46,010 bases of DNA from an uncultured Gammaproteobacteria bacterium (GTDB taxonomy: Bacteria > Patescibacteriota > Microgenomatia > Daviesbacterales > UBA10151), in the NCBI GenBank assembly GCA_964504665.1, contig CAZDEH010000005.1, forward strand, positions 1 through 46,010, read 5' to 3'. Positions within the stretch are counted from its first letter, which is position 1; each line of letters begins with the position of its first letter. The position numbers were made by a program, and so were the translations under genes. Below are positions 1-7,408 of this stretch, one piece after another. The notes under the pieces were generated by a model. It searched no databases, was not told the DNA's origin, and worked only from the letters and a program-made list of their open reading frames with translations.

Positions 1-1
1 A

Positions 2-160
2 TTTCCCGTGATTCAATGATTCAATTTCATTCGGATTTTTGATGAGTCATATCGGGGTATTGCACCAGATATTGCTTTTGATATAATTCTTGCAACAGCA
101 ATTCCGAGCTCTTTAGCACTTTTTTATTTTTTGTTTAAAAAACGATTCCGTTTACCCTAG
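2..160 (+). pseudogene. 3' fragment of a probable membrane protein gene, with in-frame TGA at 17-19
   Basis: Frame 2 reads FPVIQ*FNFIRIFDESYRGIAPDIAFDIILATAIPSSLALFYFLFKKRFRLP* (TM helix plus basic tail); truncated by the window edge. Confidence 0.3.
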
Positions 161-174
161 GATTTTATTTAGCT

Positions 175-193
175 TTCCACCTCCGAGGTGGAA
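175..193. repeat. REP-like palindrome TTCCACCT-CCG-AGGTGGAA
   Basis: 8-bp perfect arms; shares the CCACC...GGTGG core with the hairpins at 4301-6364. Confidence 0.65.
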
Positions 194-302
194 GCATAAA
201 TTCTATTACATTATAATGACGATCGGCAATATTTTATAATATTTATTTAAGGAAAATTATTCAATCCCGGATTGGCAGGCTAGATAATAGCAATTTGATA
301 TC

Positions 303-332
303 TTGACTAGGACGTACGTAATAACGTACAAT
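303..332 (+). promoter_or_regulatory. Sigma70 promoter and probable operator of the TA operon
   Basis: TTGACT-18-TACAAT, 6 nt before ATG 339; palindrome ACGTACGT (312-319) and a second ACGTAC (324-329). Confidence 0.65.
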
Positions 333-338
333 CATTTC

Positions 339-656
339 ATGACTACAGTTTCTGTGACTACAGCCCGTGATAATTTATATGATTTAATAGAAGAAGTTGC
401 CAGGAGTGGTAAAAGCATTGGTATTACCAATAAAGGTGAAACAAAGGCAGTTTTAGTTAATCCTGATGAATTAGCTTCTTGGGAAGCCACTCTGGATGTA
501 ATGTCTGATCCAAATTTAGTCAAATCTATTAAAGAAAGTGAAAAAGATATAAAATCTGGAAGATATGTGACTTGGGATGAGCTAAAAAAGGAGCTTAGTT
601 TAGATGCATCAGATAAGATTCACAAGGCGCGCCGAAAAGGACTTAAGAAAACTTAA
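339..656 (+). CDS. Phd/YefM-family antitoxin
   Basis: MTTVSVTTARDNLYDLIEEV...IGITNKGETKAVLV Phd-fold pattern; start moved to ATG 339. Confidence 0.9.
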   Translation: MTTVSVTTARDNLYDLIEEVARSGKSIGITNKGETKAVLVNPDELASWEATLDVMSDPNLVKSIKESEKDIKSGRYVTWDELKKELSLDASDKIHKARRKGLKKT

Positions 657-858
657 TAAAATTTATTTACCTAAGGTTAGTAAGTCTTTTGAGGCTTTAC
701 AATTAAATCCCCTTCTGGGTCAAAAAATGAGCGGAGAATTTGATGGATCATATCGAATTAAAATTCCTCCGATCAGGATTATCTATTTTCCAGATTTTAA
801 AAATAAAGTTATATGGATTGAGGCGATTGGACAAAGACAAGGAATTTATAAAAATTGA
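604..858 (+). CDS. RelE/ParE-family toxin
   Basis: IRFTRRAEKDLRKL...NPLLGQKMSG...YRIKIPPIRIIY...IGQRQGIYK; overlaps the antitoxin. Confidence 0.88.
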   Translation: MHQIRFTRRAEKDLRKLNKIYLPKVSKSFEALQLNPLLGQKMSGEFDGSYRIKIPPIRIIYFPDFKNKVIWIEAIGQRQGIYKN

Positions 859-875
859 TATTACTCAAAAAATAA

Positions 876-915
876 TAGAAACTTCAGGCTTTACAGGCAG
901 AGTAGAACACTAAAT
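876..915 (+). repeat. 40-bp direct repeat, copy 1
   Basis: tagaaacttcaggctttacaggcagagtagaacactaaat; 32/40 identical to 1813-1852. Confidence 0.8.
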
Positions 916-916
916 C

Positions 917-1381
917 TTATTTAACTGCAGTGTAAATAAAATAAAAAAAGGGTATAAGTATTAGAGATTCAGCAATTATAATCCATAGAACATGCCTTGA
1001 TTTATCAGAGTTTATTTTTCTAAATAATATAAACAATAACATATAAAATAAATAGCCTGAAAGAGATGCAAAACCTATTAAAATAAGAACTAAAGATAAA
1101 TGGTTATTTAATAAGGAAGTCAATAAAGAAAAACTACTAAATTTAATAAATATAAATAAAGAAATAGCTATTATTATAAATCCCCAAAAAACAGCTCCAC
1201 TTCCTGATCTAGTACCAAAAAATGGTGTCTTAAAAAAGGGATCGATATACCACTTTTTGCAGATTGCCGCGATAGCATAAGTAACTAAAAAAGAACATAT
1301 TGCTAAAATTGCTAGAGCAAAAATTTGATCTTTAGAAACTTCATATAGAAGTAATTGGAGAGGGAATTCTAAAGCTGTCAT
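917..1381 (-). CDS. Hypothetical membrane protein (~4 TM)
   Basis: 154-aa hydrophobic ORF. Confidence 0.7.
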   Translation of the reverse strand: MTALEFPLQLLLYEVSKDQIFALAILAICSFLVTYAIAAICKKWYIDPFFKTPFFGTRSGSGAVFWGFIIIAISLFIFIKFSSFSLLTSLLNNHLSLVLILIGFASLSGYLFYMLLFILFRKINSDKSRHVLWIIIAESLILIPFFYFIYTAVK

Positions 1382-1386
1382 TTGTA

Positions 1387-1764
1387 CTATATTTTAGTAA
1401 TACCAGCAATAATAGATAAAACATATAAAATCACAAGAGTAATATAAATTACAACTATAATCCAAGCATATTTATTAGCCTGTTTTGCTTTATTAGGAAA
1501 TATCTTCTTTAAGCCATAGTAATAAAAGCCCCCTGAAATTACCGGATTAAATAATTCTGTGATGATTACCGTCATTTTTTCATTGCTAGTTAATGAACTA
1601 TTATTAGTTGAAGTCGAAGTTAAATTAGATATTAGCTTATAAGTAAACCATAAACTCAATCCGCTGACTATAGGAATTACTGCCCTAAATAATTCTCTAG
1701 CTAATAGGTTTGTTACAGCAGATAAAATATAGAAGGCTATAAAGAGATAGAAAACCATTTTCAT
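1387..1764 (-). CDS. Hypothetical membrane protein
   Basis: 125-aa hydrophobic ORF, 5 nt upstream of the previous gene. Confidence 0.75.
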   Translation of the reverse strand: MKMVFYLFIAFYILSAVTNLLARELFRAVIPIVSGLSLWFTYKLISNLTSTSTNNSSLTSNEKMTVIITELFNPVISGGFYYYGLKKIFPNKAKQANKYAWIIVVIYITLVILYVLSIIAGITKI

Positions 1765-1812
1765 ACTAATTTAAATATACAGCTTTTTTTTGGGAGAAGC
1801 AATGATTTTAGG

Positions 1813-1852
1813 TAGAAATTTCAGATTTTATTGGTAGTTTAGAACACTAAAT
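1813..1852 (+). repeat. 40-bp direct repeat, copy 2
   Basis: tagaaatttcagattttattggtagtttagaacactaaat. Confidence 0.8.
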
Positions 1853-1859
1853 AAATTAC

Positions 1860-2099
1860 CTACTCTGTTCTTGCTACTTTTAAACACTCCTGGTAAAGTT
1901 TGGTGAGAGCCTTAACAAGAGCATTTAGTTTATCATGATCAGCGACACTTCCTGTTAATATCCACCTTGCTCCTTCACTAAAAAGTTCTTCCGAAGATGA
2001 TTCTTTACCTTCTGGATGATCTTTTTCTTGCTGCTTTTGTTGGTTAAGGTACAAGCCTCGGCGGGACGCCTCTATTTCAGCTCTCCTGTCTGGGTTCAT
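1860..2099 (-). CDS. Hypothetical protein
   Basis: 79-aa soluble ORF with ATG start. Confidence 0.55.
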   Translation of the reverse strand: MNPDRRAEIEASRRGLYLNQQKQQEKDHPEGKESSSEELFSEGARWILTGSVADHDKLNALVKALTKLYQECLKVARTE

Positions 2100-2242
2100 G
2101 ATAAGTTCAAAGTATACCAGAAAAGAAGGGGAAATTCTGTGAGGTCGGATACATTTTATTTTTTGTTACCCCGCCAAAATCTTTTAATAAATGTGATGAG
2201 AATTAGTTTCCCAACTTCGAGATAGAAATTAATAATGTGGTA

Positions 2243-2271
2243 TTGCATTTTTAAATAAGTTTTGGTAAACT
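2243..2271 (+). promoter_or_regulatory. tuf promoter
   Basis: TTGCAT-17-TAAACT with TG extension, followed by hairpin ccagctt-cagtt-gagctgg. Confidence 0.55.
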
Positions 2272-2314
2272 AACTTACCAGCTTCAGTTGAGCTGGATTT
2301 TTAGAGGATTATAT

Positions 2315-3499
2315 ATGGCAGACCAGAAAAAATTTGATAGATCAAAACCACACGTAAATATTGGTACTATTGGTCATGTTGACCATGGTAAAACGACTTT
2401 AACCGCAGCTATTACCAAAGTTTTAGCTTCTAAAGGTTTAGCTGAAGCCCGTTCCATAGATCAAATTGATGCTGCACCTGAGGAAAAAGCCCGCGGTATT
2501 ACAATTAATATTTCCCACCAGGAATATGAAACAGAGAAAAGGCATTACGCCCACATCGATATGCCGGGTCATGCTGACTATATTAAAAACATGATTACCG
2601 GCGCAGCCCAAACAGACGGGGCAATTTTAGTAGTTTCTGCTCCTGATGGTCCGATGCCACAAACCAGAGAACATATTTTACTTGCAAGACAGGTAGGAGT
2701 TCCGGCTATTGTGGTTTATCTGAATAAGTGCGATATGGTTGATGACGCTGAGCTTTTAGACCTAGTTGAAGAAGAGATTAGAGATTTACTGAAAAAATAT
2801 GAATATGATCCTAAATCACCAATTATTAGAGGCAGTGCTAAAAAAGCCTTAGAAGGCGATCCTGAAGCAATTAAATCTATTGAAGCTCTTATGGATGCAG
2901 TAGATGAATGGATTCCAACTCCAGTTAGAGATACAGATAAACCATTTTTGATGGCTGTGGAAGATGTTTTCTCTATTAAAGGGCGTGGAACCGTAGTTAC
3001 CGGTAGAATTGAAAGAGGGAAGATTAAAGTTAATGAAGAAATTGAAATTGTCGGAATTAGACCAACTAAGAAAAGTATTGTAACTGGAATAGAAATGTTT
3101 CACAAAATGCTTGATGATGGTCAGGCTGGGGATAATGCCGGAATATTACTCCGCGGTATTGAAAAAGATGATGTAGAACGCGGCCAAGTTTTAGCAAAAA
3201 CTGGTTCAATTACTCCACATGCTGAGTTTGAAGCAGAAGTTTATGTTTTAAGTAAAGAAGAAGGTGGAAGACACACTCCATTTTTTAAGGGTTATAGACC
3301 ACAATTTTATGTCAGAACCACTGATGTGACCGGTGAAGTGATTTTACCAGAAGGAGTAGAGATGGTGATGCCGGGAGATACTACAAAAATAAACGCTAAA
3401 CTTATTACCCCTGTTGCTATGGAAGAAGGACTCCGTTTTGCTATCCGTGAAGGTGGTAAAACAGTGGGAGCAGGAGTTATTACTAAGATCATTAAATAA
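2315..3499 (+). CDS. tuf: Elongation factor Tu
   Basis: [31 protein letters not shown]; start set at ATG 2315. Confidence 0.99.
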
Positions 3500-4329: not shown

Positions 4330-5004
4330 CTATTCTTCTATAATTAAATGCTTGATCTTATCTAGTTCCTGAGAATAAGATATTTGGTCAAAAACAAAAT
4401 TTTTGTAATCATTTACAGAGTGAAATTGTTTAGTTATTATTTCCTTTTGGCAGAATGCTTCTTCTGATTCTAAATATTCTTTTAATGAGGACCAGGGGTA
4501 AGATTCAAGTCCCTTTTCTTTAATAATATATGATGTAACTGGATTCAGGTGAATATATCTGGATAAATGGATCAACTGTTCATTAGACTCAATATAAACA
4601 GACTTGAATGGTCCTTGAATCAGAGAACCGTTTCAGTCATGTTTTGTATTGAAATATTTAGTGTAACTGTTTGTAAAATTGGCTATAAAAGTTGATATGC
4701 CATTATCACTTAATTGTTTTATTAAGAAATGAAAATGATTAGGCATTAAACAAAAACTGACAATATCAACAAGTTTATTTCCAGGTTTAACAATCTGGGT
4801 AAGAATTTTTTCTTGATTTTGTGGAGTTTGGACAAGAAATTTAGAGAACTTTATAGCAAGGTTTCTATATTGGTAGTACTTTAAGGTACCTAGGGCACGT
4901 TTGTATTCTCTCTTGTCAGTAAAAATATCTCTTTTTTCTACACCTCTATTAAATATATGGTAGAATTGGTCGTTTGCTAGTATTGTTTTTCTTAATGTTG
5001 CCAC
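4330..5004 (-). pseudogene. REP-associated tyrosine transposase (RAYT, Y1 HUH) interrupted by in-frame TGA at 4633-4635
   Basis: YHIFNRGVEK, FCLMPNHFH (HUH), KYFNTKHD*NGSLIQGPFKS...RYIHLNPV, YPWSS all in one frame across the stop. Confidence 0.9.
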
Positions 5005-5048: not shown

Positions 5049-5078
5049 CCACCCGAGGGGTGGGCTACCCTATACTCG
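5049..5078 (-). repeat. REP-like hairpin, type B (GTAG-led on the minus strand)
   Basis: ccacccgaggggtgggctaccctatactcg; minus strand reads GTAG-cccacccctcgggtgg. Confidence 0.85.
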
Positions 5079-5934: not shown

Positions 5935-5964
5935 CCACCCGAGGGGTGGGCTACCATATACTCG
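5935..5964 (-). repeat. REP-like hairpin, type B, second copy
   Basis: 29/30 identical to 5049-5078. Confidence 0.88.
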
Positions 5965-6583: not shown

Positions 6584-7408
6584 ATGATAAATACATTATT
6601 TGGTATAAAACGGAATATGACATCCAGTTATGATGCCCGCGGCAGACGGACGGGTGTCACCGTACTCGAGATTCAACCAAATATAGTTACCCAAATTAAA
6701 TCAGTGGACAGTAAAGATGGATATAATGCAATCCAAATCGGAGTAGGCCACAAAAAATCAATCAAAAAACCTCAGATCGGACATGCTGCTAAAGCTGGAA
6801 TAGACAAAAAACTCAGATGGTTTAGAGAAGTCAGAGAATCAGATGAAAATTTAGAACCTGGTCAAGAAATAACAATAGACCAGGTTTTTTCTAAGGGTAA
6901 CTCAGTCAAAATTACCGGTATTTCTAAAGGAAAAGGTTTTCAAGGTGGAGTCAGACGTCATGGTTTTCATGGCGGACCAAAAACCCACGGTCAATCAGAT
7001 CGTCACCGTGCTCCCGGTTCTATCGGATCCGGAACTACCCCGGGAAGGGTGTTAAAAGGTAAAAAAATGGCCGGACATATGGGGAACGAAACTTCCTCTG
7101 TAAAAAATTTAGAAGTTGTTGCAGTTGATAAAAAAGAAAATTTATTGTTAGTAAAAGGAGCGATCCCTGGTTTTTCCGGAGGTTTAGTGCAAATTACTAA
7201 ACTTGGACATATTAAAGGCTATACTCCTCCACCTGAGGAAAAAGAAGAAGAGTCGGAGGAGGAATTAAGCGTTGAGAATCAAGGATTAAGTGAGGAAAAA
7301 GTGGAAACAACAGAAAAAGTTGAAGGAGAATCCTCCTCCGCTGACAGCCGTCGGTCAGAGCCTATGGCGTCGGACGAAGCTACGAAGGACAAGGAAAATG
7401 CCAGTTAA
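6584..7408 (+). CDS. rplC: 50S ribosomal protein L3 with acidic C-terminal tail
   Basis: DGYNAIQ, GKGFQG, THGQSDRHRAPGSIG, MAGHMG. Confidence 0.99.
   Translation: MINTLFGIKRNMTSSYDARGRRTGVTVLEIQPNIVTQIKSVDSKDGYNAIQIGVGHKKSIKKPQIGHAAKAGIDKKLRWFREVRESDENLEPGQEITIDQVFSKGNSVKITGISKGKGFQGGVRRHGFHGGPKTHGQSDRHRAPGSIGSGTTPGRVLKGKKMAGHMGNETSSVKNLEVVAVDKKENLLLVKGAIPGFSGGLVQITKLGHIKGYTPPPEEKEEESEEELSVENQGLSEEKVETTEKVEGESSSADSRRSEPMASDEATKDKENAS

Follow-up and report, generated by a model that had tools for sequence, protein, structure and literature searches.

When e14 or phage 21 occupies icd in Escherichia coli, the element supplies a replacement 3′-end for the gene, and the displaced native end persists as a pseudo-fragment. 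In Rhs/CDI-like toxin loci, recombination across conserved upstream sequence installs a new 3′-end and shifts the old one downstream, yielding arrays without a dedicated recombinase. Integrons hold small, often single-operon cassettes, each with a recombination-site repeat; entry is proximal, and toxin–antitoxin (TA) cargo is frequent. The ssrA islands of Dehalococcoides form a tandem stack behind a single-copy essential gene, and a direct repeat of that gene's 3′-end bounds each of them; their target is an RNA gene and their repeat has a constant length of 20 bp. A serine-recombinase module is present in 16 islands, and the 15 without an integration module are interpreted as cis-mobilizable units joined by accretion (PMC3146451). 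The dif modules of Acinetobacter plasmids are described as small, recombinase-less units that often hold TA pairs, are bounded by short repeats (28-bp XerC/XerD sites) and are thought to use the housekeeping Xer proteins (PMC6449649, PMC13141974). Family 1 casposons (at aEF-2) and Tn7 (at glmS) target the 3′-distal coding region of a conserved essential gene and leave the gene intact (PMC4046053); casposons are large elements with inverted ends that encode Cas1 and PolB and generate 13–15 bp duplications (PMC8464041).

The locus described here lies at the start of the window, the whole 46,010-nucleotide stretch that was analysed (contig C5, CAZDEH010000005.1, of genome G000, GCA_964504665.1), upstream of tuf in a member of Candidatus Daviesbacteria. 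The best reading of the arrays found at this position is that they are a new variant of 3′-end displacement and tandem accretion. Whereas e14 and phage 21 are prophages with their own integrase and a single insertion, the fusA cassettes are tiny, integrase-less and serially stacked. The displaced ends of Rhs/CDI-like loci are functional toxin domains with immunity genes, whereas the fusA copies are non-functional scraps of a housekeeping gene with cargo between them. The arrays resemble those of integrons in their small cassettes, each followed by a site-like repeat, and in their TA cargo, but they have no IntI or attI, the repeat is a host gene end and not a folded attC, and genes lie in both orientations. 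The stacking of units between target-3′-end repeats resembles that of the ssrA islands and of CIME accretion; in the fusA arrays, however, the target is protein-coding, the repeats are 27–63 nt long with variable left edges, and no tyrosine or serine recombinase was found among the 191 cargo ORFs scanned across the arrays of 90 genomes. With the dif modules the cassettes have in common small size, frequent TA pairs and short bounding repeats, but unlike pdif sites the copies show no dif-like dyad by eye and lie in the chromosomal str operon. The site itself recalls that of family 1 casposons, aEF-2 being the archaeal counterpart of EF-G (PMC4046053), although Cas1, PolB and inverted ends were not found, the cassettes are small and the repeats are longer than 13–15 bp.

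The initial annotation had reported a 40-bp direct repeat at gene boundaries and read it as leftover fusA termini. The repeat was confirmed (876–915 and 1813–1852, 32/40 positions identical); on the plus strand both copies read as peptides followed by a stop codon, DITQKIIETSGFTGRVEH and VEISDFIGSLEH. When the 998-kb genome was searched with up to 11 substitutions allowed, only these two sites and one on contig C32 were recovered. The latter is the true fusA 3′-end, closing the gene for a 725-aa EF-G that ends in ...YQEVPNNITQKIVETSGFTGRVEH (C-terminal end ...NNITQKIVETSGFTGRVEH, then the stop), and it aligned with copy 1 at 49 of 55 positions, as the annotation had predicted for the host's own fusA. 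Copy 1 was detected by nhmmer with E = 1.9e-12 in the genome plus loci and with E = 7.9e-13 in the family-wide search of loci. Copy 2 was missed by nhmmer genome-wide at E ≤ 10 and gave E = 0.028 when only the 2.3-kb interval was searched; its Smith–Waterman score against the fusA end was 40 (null mean 16.1, sd 3.4), a value that roughly one random genome window in 4000 attains (p ~0.00025). Judged by these alignments, 857–915 and 1812–1852 are decaying duplicates of the last 40–57 nt of the genome's own fusA. A weaker third echo had been suspected at ~253–290. The stretch at ~235–291 scored 31 against the fusA end (null mean 16.1, sd ~3.5; p ~0.001 for one pre-specified window) and reached p = 0.026 against copy 1, both by Smith–Waterman; it was absent from the nhmmer output of the interval search, and is probably a third fusA-end copy. 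A degenerate pattern was derived from copies 1 and 2, so its match count is no independent evidence. One weak nhmmer match at C25:7305–7352 (E = 0.019) lies inside an ORF on another contig and was taken as chance.

Two further expectations of the annotation, that fusA lies upstream of the window and that insertion had occurred at its stop codon, stood in part. C32 carries rpsG followed by fusA and then a 78-aa ORF, C5 carries the start of the array followed by tuf and rpsJ, and fusA and tuf share one contig in 76 of the 90 relatives; since fusA is on C32 and the window on C5, we infer their adjacency from synteny and not from the assembly. The copies do derive from the fusA end, but they start ~57 or ~30 nt before the stop, which places the break inside the end and not at the stop itself.

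The copies fall at cassette boundaries, in the order Phd/YefM–ParE pair, two membrane genes, orphan ORF and tuf (Table 1), in agreement with the proposal of a cassette stack between fusA and tuf. The antitoxin and toxin genes overlap at 604–656, antitoxin first, and both score above curated family cut-offs; 339–858 is accordingly a predicted type II TA pair, Phd/YefM with a ParE/RelE-superfamily toxin. The stop codon of the toxin gene abuts copy 1, the junction running ...TATAAAAATTGA and then TATTACT. The promoter-like site ahead of the pair was the top match within 1–2400 (10/12) and is suggestive only, as the total number of matches equalled the shuffle expectation (12 sites versus 12.0); the scan is uninformative on copies acting as promoters. 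In three relatives (G067, G100 and G107) a fusA end or copy is likewise followed by TTGAC..ACGTACG. Neither the 154-aa membrane ORF nor the orphan ORF matched a Pfam/NCBIfam family, and the 178 cargo ORFs from relatives included no homologue of the former; the 125-aa membrane ORF had no family above cut-off (DUF1129 at a sub-threshold 16.8 bits versus 29.1).

Table 1. Features at the start of the window
Feature	Position	Strand	Remarks
Probable third, most decayed fusA 3′-end copy	235..291 (approx.)	+	Directly upstream of the promoter-like site of the TA pair
Promoter-like site of the TA operon	303..332	+	TTGACT, 18 nt, TACAAT; palindromic ACGTACG...CGTAC operator-like stretch
Predicted Phd/YefM-family antitoxin gene, 105 aa	339..656	+	PF02604 E 6e-15, 55.2 bits vs cut-off 29.8; TIGR01552 31.3 vs 20.8
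Predicted ParE/RelE-superfamily toxin gene, 84 aa	604..858	+	PF05016 E 5.5e-10, 40.1 bits vs cut-off 23
Copy 1 of fusA 3′-end	857..915	+	Reads DITQKIIETSGFTGRVEH then stop; 49/55 vs last 55 nt of own fusA (858–912)
Predicted membrane protein gene, 154 aa	917..1381	-	ORF; cassette gene
Predicted membrane protein gene, 125 aa	1387..1764	-	Cassette ORF; singleton among relatives' cargo
Copy 2 of fusA 3′-end	1812..1852	+	Reads VEISDFIGSLEH then stop; shorter, more decayed; 32/40 vs copy 1
Orphan 79-aa ORF between copy 2 and tuf	1860..2099	-	ORF; singleton among relatives' cargo
tuf (EF-Tu), downstream limit of the array	2315..3499	+	394 aa, 94–95% identical to EF-Tu of two same-genus genomes

To follow the locus across the family, 94 loci from 90 Candidatus Daviesbacteria genomes (543 kb) were searched, extra copies being counted at nhmmer E ≤ 0.01. 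Variable fusA–tuf intervals, which the annotation had proposed to look for in relatives, were found: the gap spans 79 to 9276 nt, and cassettes followed by fusA-end copies occur in 25 of the 90 genomes (31 extra copies). All 31 lie on the fusA strand (no minus-strand matches), and where tuf is on the contig no copy is found on its far side; a reversed-pattern control gave no matches across all 96 genomes. Cassettes measure 0.3–2.3 kb, genes of both orientations are present, and the cargo directly 5′ of a copy consists mainly of type II TA pairs and of NYN and GIY-YIG nucleases. The fusA gene remains intact, with the full 725-aa frame in the window's genome and the stop reached at every locus where the fusA end was located. 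In 11 genomes from other families of the class the fusA–tuf gap was 36–920 nt, no copy of the own fusA end was seen at z > 4 in the nine testable gaps, and the EF-G ends were without SGFTGRVEH. Metagenomes scanned for a pattern tailored to the two best copies of the window's genome gave zero matches. The family pattern gave 86 stretches, with at least two same-strand ends in 22 of the 80 loci examined (16 of 73 distinct contigs) and two exact pattern matches in separate loci on a seventeenth contig; these contigs, from which the same MAGs may have been built, do not count as independent cases. The locus is split over two contigs in four genomes (G000, G109, G074 and G095), and a contig end falls within or at the array in about ten more; with such frequent breaks, binning and annotation pipelines may lose or mis-join the region. 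Full-text literature searches brought up no published description of fusA-end scar arrays.

The right edge lies within 8 nt of the stop codon in 22 of 29 copies, and left edges cluster at −54 to −63 (14/29) and −27 to −36 (10/29), two classes common to five unrelated cassette families; in the ParE cassettes the start of the copy varies, from profile position 5 to 36. Lengths run from about 27 to 63 nt (28 of 29 copies are ≤63 nt, one alignment reaches −78, and the shortest are 27–32 nt). The short class is 96–97% identical to the own fusA end (29/30, 31/32, 29/30 and 28/29), a figure that partly reflects detection bias. An origin as remnants of a duplicated fusA gene was considered and rejected, the copies never clearly exceeding ~63 nt and the cargo differing between them. 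A perfect palindrome, TAATATTA, sits at the left edge of the long class. Third-codon entropy was 1.44 bits in the fusA end versus 1.34 upstream, which indicates conservation as protein and not as DNA; invariant first and second codon positions give 16 fixed bases in 24.

As to age, the copy nearer fusA scored better in five of the six arrays with at least two extra copies. G109 departs from the expectation that the newest copy is the one nearest fusA, and so does G000 if the third echo is real (it lies nearer fusA than copy 1 and is more decayed); in G000 decay would then not rise steadily with distance from fusA. As to origin, in 24 of 32 comparisons the copy was closer to the fusA end of its own host than to those of the three nearest relatives (reverse in 7, tie in 1). 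When the same 32 copies were used to ask which end is native, the relatives were closer to the working end in 19 cases and to the copy in 12, a difference that was not significant (Wilcoxon P = 0.20). In G090 both copies match the fusA end of the nearest relative (0.93 and 0.92) while the working end does so poorly (0.73 and 0.69), so that the working end looks imported and the copies native; fusA identity between the two genomes drops from 0.85–0.88 to 0.72 over the last 60 columns. Splitting the ParE-linked copies into left and right halves gave no clean partition between element and host, and the long copies resemble the host in both halves.

The remark of the initial annotation that no integrase was in view holds well beyond the window: PF00589 had no match on its contig, and when 191 cargo ORFs from the family were scanned with Pfam (109 from the 178 of the first set plus 82 from 32 later loci), no tyrosine or serine recombinase was found. 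In G000 (98% complete) PF00589 matched only on contigs C8 and C1, in two Xer-like tyrosine recombinases that look like housekeeping Xer proteins; Cas1 (PF01867) and resolvases were not found in this genome, nor was Cas1 among the scanned cargo ORFs. Terminal inverted repeats were present in 1 of 30 cassettes at p ≤ 0.01, and these results set the arrays apart from casposons and transposons. Fold signal was absent (mean z −0.2, none of 30 ends below −2, with RNA energy parameters and 30 of 89 ends sampled); with no IntI or attI at the locus and ends without an attC-like fold signal, the arrays are not integrons. No dif-like dyad was recognised in the copies by eye. By its layout in the sequence the locus resembles an att-remnant array, direct repeats of the target's 3′-end bounding the units next to an intact target gene, although the integrase-encoding units of such arrays had no counterpart among the 191 cargo ORFs. 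Transposases occur in the arrays of only three genomes (an rve DDE enzyme in G083, Y1 enzymes in G022 and G081). The IS200/IS605 family is not known to make long duplications, and an insertion of this type, considered because Y1 transposases lie nearby, was rejected. In public reads (four runs, window 1–3000) the organism is present at 3–5x depth in short contigs; at that depth neither an excised circle nor an empty-site read nor strain polymorphism came to light, and the sole read-contig joint across the array (142 to 2327) is unreliable, occurring in a single contig with a shorter arm of 21 letters.

Our preferred reading, to which we give about an even chance, is that the arrays arose by serial insertions into the last ~30–60 nt of fusA, probably driven by homology without an integrase of the element. 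A cassette would enter by recombination inside this stretch, bringing its own copy of the fusA end so that EF-G stays intact; the previous end would be stranded downstream as an untranslated remnant and decay, and repeats of the event would build the stack. Circular or transformed DNA with a fusA-end fragment could insert by a single Campbell-type crossover at the chromosomal fusA end, recombination between flanking copies would let a cassette pop out as a circle with one copy, and TA cargo would resist such loss. The first junction of each cassette type may have been an illegitimate join at microhomology. The terminal AAATAA of the ParE toxin gene equals the AAATAA of fusA just before TATTACC, this junction is common to the ParE cassettes of G000, G004, G022 and G109, and ParE homologues elsewhere in CPR have the same TATAAATAA ending with no fusA end after it. 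The points counted for the homology reading were the identity to the own fusA, the family recurrence, the edges, the host resemblance, G090, the lack of a recombinase, the protein-only conservation, the shared microhomology junction and the better score of the copy nearer fusA in five of six arrays. Counted against it, the clustering of left edges at two positions looks more site-specific than predicted, and homology of 27–57 nt at 70–97% identity would be marginal for RecA-type recombination. The failure to see circles, empty sites or strain variants in the 3–5x reads, the non-significant native-copy test (P = 0.20), the order exceptions of G000 and G109 and an adjacency of C32 and C5 drawn from synteny were also set on this side.

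That clustering would be better accounted for if the cassettes were integrase-less, CIME-like elements mobilised in trans by a site-specific recombinase whose gene lies outside the arrays (one of the two Xer-like proteins, or a virus or plasmid enzyme), which we consider unlikely. The enzyme would read either the AATAATATTA palindrome or those bases of the SGFTGRVEH codons that the protein sequence constrains, with crossover near −57 or −30, and the element would restore the rest of fusA. Two sharp left-edge classes in five unrelated cassette families, the perfect palindrome at the long-class edge and the 16 fixed bases are consistent with it, as is the divergence of the G090 working end, which begins at about that edge, and the host-like halves of the ParE-linked long copies, as expected with a crossover at the extreme left; 3′-ends of essential genes under protein constraint are the targets of Tn7 (glmS) and family 1 casposons (aEF-2) (PMC4046053). 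Yet no array encodes a dedicated integrase (0/191 ORFs), the sole tyrosine recombinases of G000 look like housekeeping enzymes, synonymous sites of the supposed target drift freely, the ends (30 of 89) show no dyad symmetry or fold signal (mean z −0.2), and junctions vary within a cassette family, the ParE copies starting anywhere from profile position 5 to 36. The absence of a recombinase agrees with one-sided homologous recombination of linear transformed DNA (homology-facilitated illegitimate recombination), in which a donor fusA 3′ region with its cassettes pairs with the recipient fusA, the far end makes an illegitimate join at microhomology within the fusA end of the recipient, and that end is stranded. 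The AAATAA microhomology of the ParE junction, the imported working end and native-looking copies of G090 and the conserved anchors (EF-Tu 86–95% and EF-G 76–88% identical across genera) fit this route, but it should leave a broad spread of copy lengths with long fusA fragments, whereas 28 of 29 copies are ≤63 nt; the divergent tract of G090 is not visibly upstream of the end (a weak test given the 0.85 baseline), and the recurrence of one junction in several genera would require that it formed once and then spread. We hold this route to be quite unlikely.

Duplication at the target itself, by a transposase or casposase-like integrase making staggered cuts ~30 or 57 nt apart with gap repair of the fusA end, in the manner of target-site or CRISPR repeat duplication, is already weakly refuted and highly improbable. 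It would explain why copies are usually closest to the host's own end, why the short class is 96–97% identical to it (partly detection bias) and why the newest copy tends to be proximal. Against this, G000 has no Cas1, inverted repeats were found in 1/30 cassettes (p ≤ 0.01), DDE or Y1 transposases occur in the arrays of just three genomes, the G090 working end is unlike its copies, and transposases are not known to produce target duplications of 30–60 nt. Family 1 casposons do target the aEF-2 3′-end (PMC4046053), a point in favour. A broader proposal, which we regard as doubtful, is that Daviesbacteria, and perhaps CPR more widely, have an integron-like cassette system without an integron, in which the fusA end would be a universal docking site and cassettes would circulate as circles via Xer-like recombinases or RecA acting on 27–60 nt. 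Small selfish cassettes (TA pairs, NYN and GIY-YIG nucleases) would then each carry a fusA-end copy as recombination site, and a mobile, highly expressed TA or defence array would lie inside the str operon.

CPR bacteria have genomes of ~1 Mb in which few mobile elements are recognised, and little is known of how new genes reach them. On the reading of serial insertion, the fusA end would be a family-wide site of gene entry inside a core translation operon, at which each event leaves a readable scar. The scars would offer an ordered record of insertions and help to locate cassette boundaries in metagenome bins; the fusA arrays give a concrete target for testing whether cassettes can move without an integrase, by short homology or through housekeeping Xer proteins.

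The 40-nt direct repeat described in the initial annotation (876-915 and 1813-1852, 32/40 identical) was confirmed; read on the + strand, each copy gives a peptide that runs to a stop codon (DITQKIIETSGFTGRVEH and VEISDFIGSLEH). The genome under study (G000) is assembled as 998 kb in 42 contigs, the window being the initial 46 kb of contig C5.

Features at the start of the window (positions in nt)
Feature	Position	Strand	Remark
Third echo, probable fusA-end copy	~235-291		
Phd/YefM antitoxin	339-656		above Pfam cut-off
ParE-family toxin	604-858		above Pfam cut-off
Copy 1 of fusA end	857-915	+	
Predicted membrane-protein ORF	917-1381	-	no family matches
Predicted membrane-protein ORF	1387-1764	-	no family matches
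Copy 2 of fusA end	1812-1852	+	
Orphan ORF, 79 aa	1860-2099		
tuf	2315-3499		followed by rpsJ

When the two copies were used to search the whole genome with at most 11 substitutions permitted, one additional site was found, on contig C32. This is the true end of fusA, which encodes a 725-aa EF-G ending in ...YQEVPNNITQKIVETSGFTGRVEH; rpsG lies upstream, and just 264 nt of contig lie beyond. Alignment with this end showed that the repeats are, as had been proposed, similar to the fusA 3′-end. Copy 1 (858-912) matches the final 55 nt of fusA at 49 positions (E = 1.9e-12 with a profile built from 24 fusA ends of the family). Copy 2 covers the final ~41 nt and is far more decayed: it went undetected by the profile genome-wide at E ≤ 10, reached E = 0.028 when the search was confined to the 2.3-kb interval, and scored 40 in pairwise alignment (null 16.1 ± 3.4). 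A weaker third echo had been suggested at ~253-290; it was missed by nhmmer, scored 31 on the copy-2 null (p ~0.001 for that single window), and occupies the position predicted for a boundary copy, directly ahead of the promoter-like site of the toxin–antitoxin (TA) pair. It is probably a fusA-end copy. A hairpin with a T-run (CCAGCTTCAGTTGAGCTGG ATTTTT, 2278-2296) immediately precedes the tuf start; as a hairpin of similar type (CCAGCTGAGCTAGCTGG) also lies ahead of tuf in two relatives (G094 and G107), the structure could be a conserved leader of tuf or could terminate the upstream unit.

Since the minus strand of C32 terminates with fusA and a 78-aa ORF, C5 starts with the array followed by tuf and rpsJ, and 76 of 90 relatives have fusA and tuf in this arrangement on a single contig, we infer that C32 and C5, which are not joined in the assembly, are very probably neighbours across a gap. 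The assembly also breaks inside the array in several other genomes. Two bins each hold two differing fusA 3′-ends on separate contigs (G095, loci L088 and L089; G074, loci L108 and L109), which suggests two strains per bin or mis-binning at the locus. On the minus strand of C32 (locus L031, 2457-4003) rpsG and fusA are separated by three additional genes: a 74-aa ORF, GreA-like by eye only, and two encoding secreted or pilin-like proteins that start MQKGF or MNQKGF. As proteins with this type of N-terminus also occur in the fusA–tuf gap of G006 and G009, the operon may be variable at a second place, the rpsG–fusA junction.

The fusA end was found in 90 of 96 genomes of the family, and the DNA downstream was taken. 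As anticipated, relatives carry variable cassettes here: the fusA–tuf gap spans 79-9276 nt (median 1226), being <150 nt in 8 genomes and >1 kb in 44. A uniform profile search of 94 loci (543 kb) yielded 31 extra fusA-end copies in 25 genomes at E ≤ 0.01, and 36 in 28 genomes at E ≤ 1. All share the strand of fusA, with none on the minus strand of these loci and none past tuf on tuf-bearing contigs; a reversed-pattern control gave no matches in 96 genomes. In the two relatives that share the genus of G000 the gap is 91 or 883 nt long and contains no copy. Eleven genomes representing other families of the class have EF-G ends that differ from the family type and gaps measuring 36-920 nt, and no copy was present in the nine gaps of testable length. 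A search of metagenomes with the family pattern found at least two same-strand ends on 16 of 73 distinct contigs, which may overlap the MAG sources; the most complete end was upstream in all except three short or cut contigs. The interpretation of the repeats as decayed, duplicated fusA termini bounding stacked cassettes is thus supported.

Interval ORFs were clustered and 191 of them (109 + 82) scanned with Pfam. Units directly before a copy are mostly type II TA pairs: Phd/YefM-ParE (a copy comes after it in nine genomes, G000 among them, and none could be detected in three), HTH_17 with PIN, DUF433 with DUF5615 on the opposite strand, DUF5674 with an unnamed partner, and HicA. NYN-domain and GIY-YIG nucleases occupy the same place. 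The remaining cargo includes SPFH proteins, a helicase, glycoside-related proteins and a GpsA homologue that usually adjoins tuf and may be native. The lack of an integrase noted in the window extended to the family, none of the 191 ORFs being a tyrosine or serine recombinase by Pfam; transposases were limited to one DDE and to Y1 enzymes in two arrays. The whole G000 genome encodes two Xer-like tyrosine recombinases, neither on C5; resolvase and Cas1 were not found in it.

Just 3′ of rpsJ in the window, a Y1 (IS200-like, RAYT-type) transposase gene (4330-5004, minus strand) is broken into two ORFs (123 and 81 aa), and GC-rich hairpin repeats that are almost identical occur nearby (CCACCCGAGGGGTGG..., 5049-5078 and 5935-5964). 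A hairpin within the array (TTCCACCTCCGAGGTGGAA, 176-194) resembles these, and the G022 array holds an intact 214-aa homologue of the split transposase. Of 30 cassettes, only the GIY-YIG one adjoining the fusA stop in G109 (locus L092, oriented 330-598) has inverted ends that reach significance (score 24, z 6.6); in G092, G093 and G109, GIY-YIG cassettes start no more than 1-3 nt from the fusA stop. In loci L075 (G049), L080 (G069) and L085 (G090) a small ORF starting MSEH lies 2-3 nt past a fusA-end stop, that of the working gene in G049 and G069 and of a displaced copy in G090. TAAAATG starts, common among first genes after fusA, suggest translational coupling to it.

Alignment of 29 copies to their own host's fusA end showed 22 terminating ≤8 nt from the stop codon. 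Left edges fell at -54 to -63 (n = 14), -27 to -36 (n = 10) and -42 to -47 (n = 4), one alignment reaching -78. For the short class, identity with the host end reaches 86-97% in the five clearest cases (25/29 to 31/32), which is partly detection bias, because diverged short copies would evade detection. Many copies bear frameshifts or stop codons and are therefore untranslated. One 298-aa ORF without a Pfam match (L082, G083, oriented 1379-2275) runs in frame through a copy, ending ...GFTGRVEH at its stop, and adjoins the only DDE (rve) transposase of all arrays. Another copy, 3′ of an NYN-domain gene (L041, G008, oriented 6653-6742), is interrupted by a 46-nt insert with an inverted repeat that looks like a miniature hairpin element. 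The ParE toxin gene end ...TATAAATAA abuts TATTACC of the copy in G000, G004, G022 and G109; fusA has ..AAATAATATTACC.. at the corresponding position, which places the junction in a microhomology of 6 nt. It is eroded in other genomes, and ParE homologues elsewhere in CPR share the ending with no fusA end after it.

The nearest match of a copy was its own genome's fusA end in 24 of 32 cases (opposite in seven, one tie). In G090 both downstream copies match the fusA end of the nearest relative, G013 (0.93 and 0.92), unlike the working end of G090 (0.73 and 0.69); identity between the two fusA genes is 0.85-0.88 over the last few hundred nt and 0.72 in the final 60 columns. Here the copies look native and the newest insert seems to have brought in the working end, a pattern that was not significant over all 32 copies. 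Where an array has at least two extra copies, the fusA-proximal one scores better in five of six, G109 being the exception; the third echo of G000, if counted, likewise breaks this order.

The copies show repeated insertion inside the final ~30-60 nt of fusA, with that end duplicated; how it occurs we infer. The favoured reading, to which we give about an even chance, is Campbell-type insertion and excision driven by homology and free of any recombinase, in which rare microhomology joins would seed the first cassette junctions. A site-specific step is suggested by the two sharp left-edge classes common to unrelated cassettes, by a palindrome (TAATATTA) that marks the edge of the long class, and by the host-like state of both halves of ParE-linked copies; a site-specific recombinase acting in trans is considered unlikely. 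A recombinase that is element-encoded or bound to a fixed site is disfavoured by five features: no array contains an integrase, the sampled fusA ends give no fold signal, inverted ends are lacking (one of 30 cassettes excepted), synonymous positions at the fusA end drift freely (third-codon entropy 1.44 vs 1.34 bits upstream), and junctions vary within one cassette family. One-sided homologous recombination on linear DNA appears quite unlikely, and duplication of the end by an integrase making a staggered cut very improbable.

Comparable cases include e14 in icd, integron TA cassettes, displaced Rhs/CDI ends and homology-facilitated illegitimate recombination. Tandem islands at ssrA in Dehalococcoides are the closest described system: 20-bp repeats derived from the ssrA end flank them, 16 have a serine-recombinase module, and the 15 that lack one have been interpreted as cis-mobilizable elements that accreted there (PMC3146451). 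In family 1 casposons, insertion is directed to the 3′-end of aEF-2, which corresponds to EF-G in archaea (PMC4046053), but these elements have Cas1, inverted ends and 13-bp duplications (PMC4046053, PMC8464041), whereas G000 has no Cas1. Acinetobacter dif modules are small, recombinase-less and often TA pairs (PMC6449649, PMC13141974). A search of full-text articles returned no description of fusA-end cassettes. The fusA arrays stand apart from each of these systems in that a protein-coding gene is the target, the cassettes are tiny, TA-dominated and serially stacked, and the arrays of 90 genomes hold no recombinase. The finding in the window extends to the family, as one case of a family-wide insertion hot spot.
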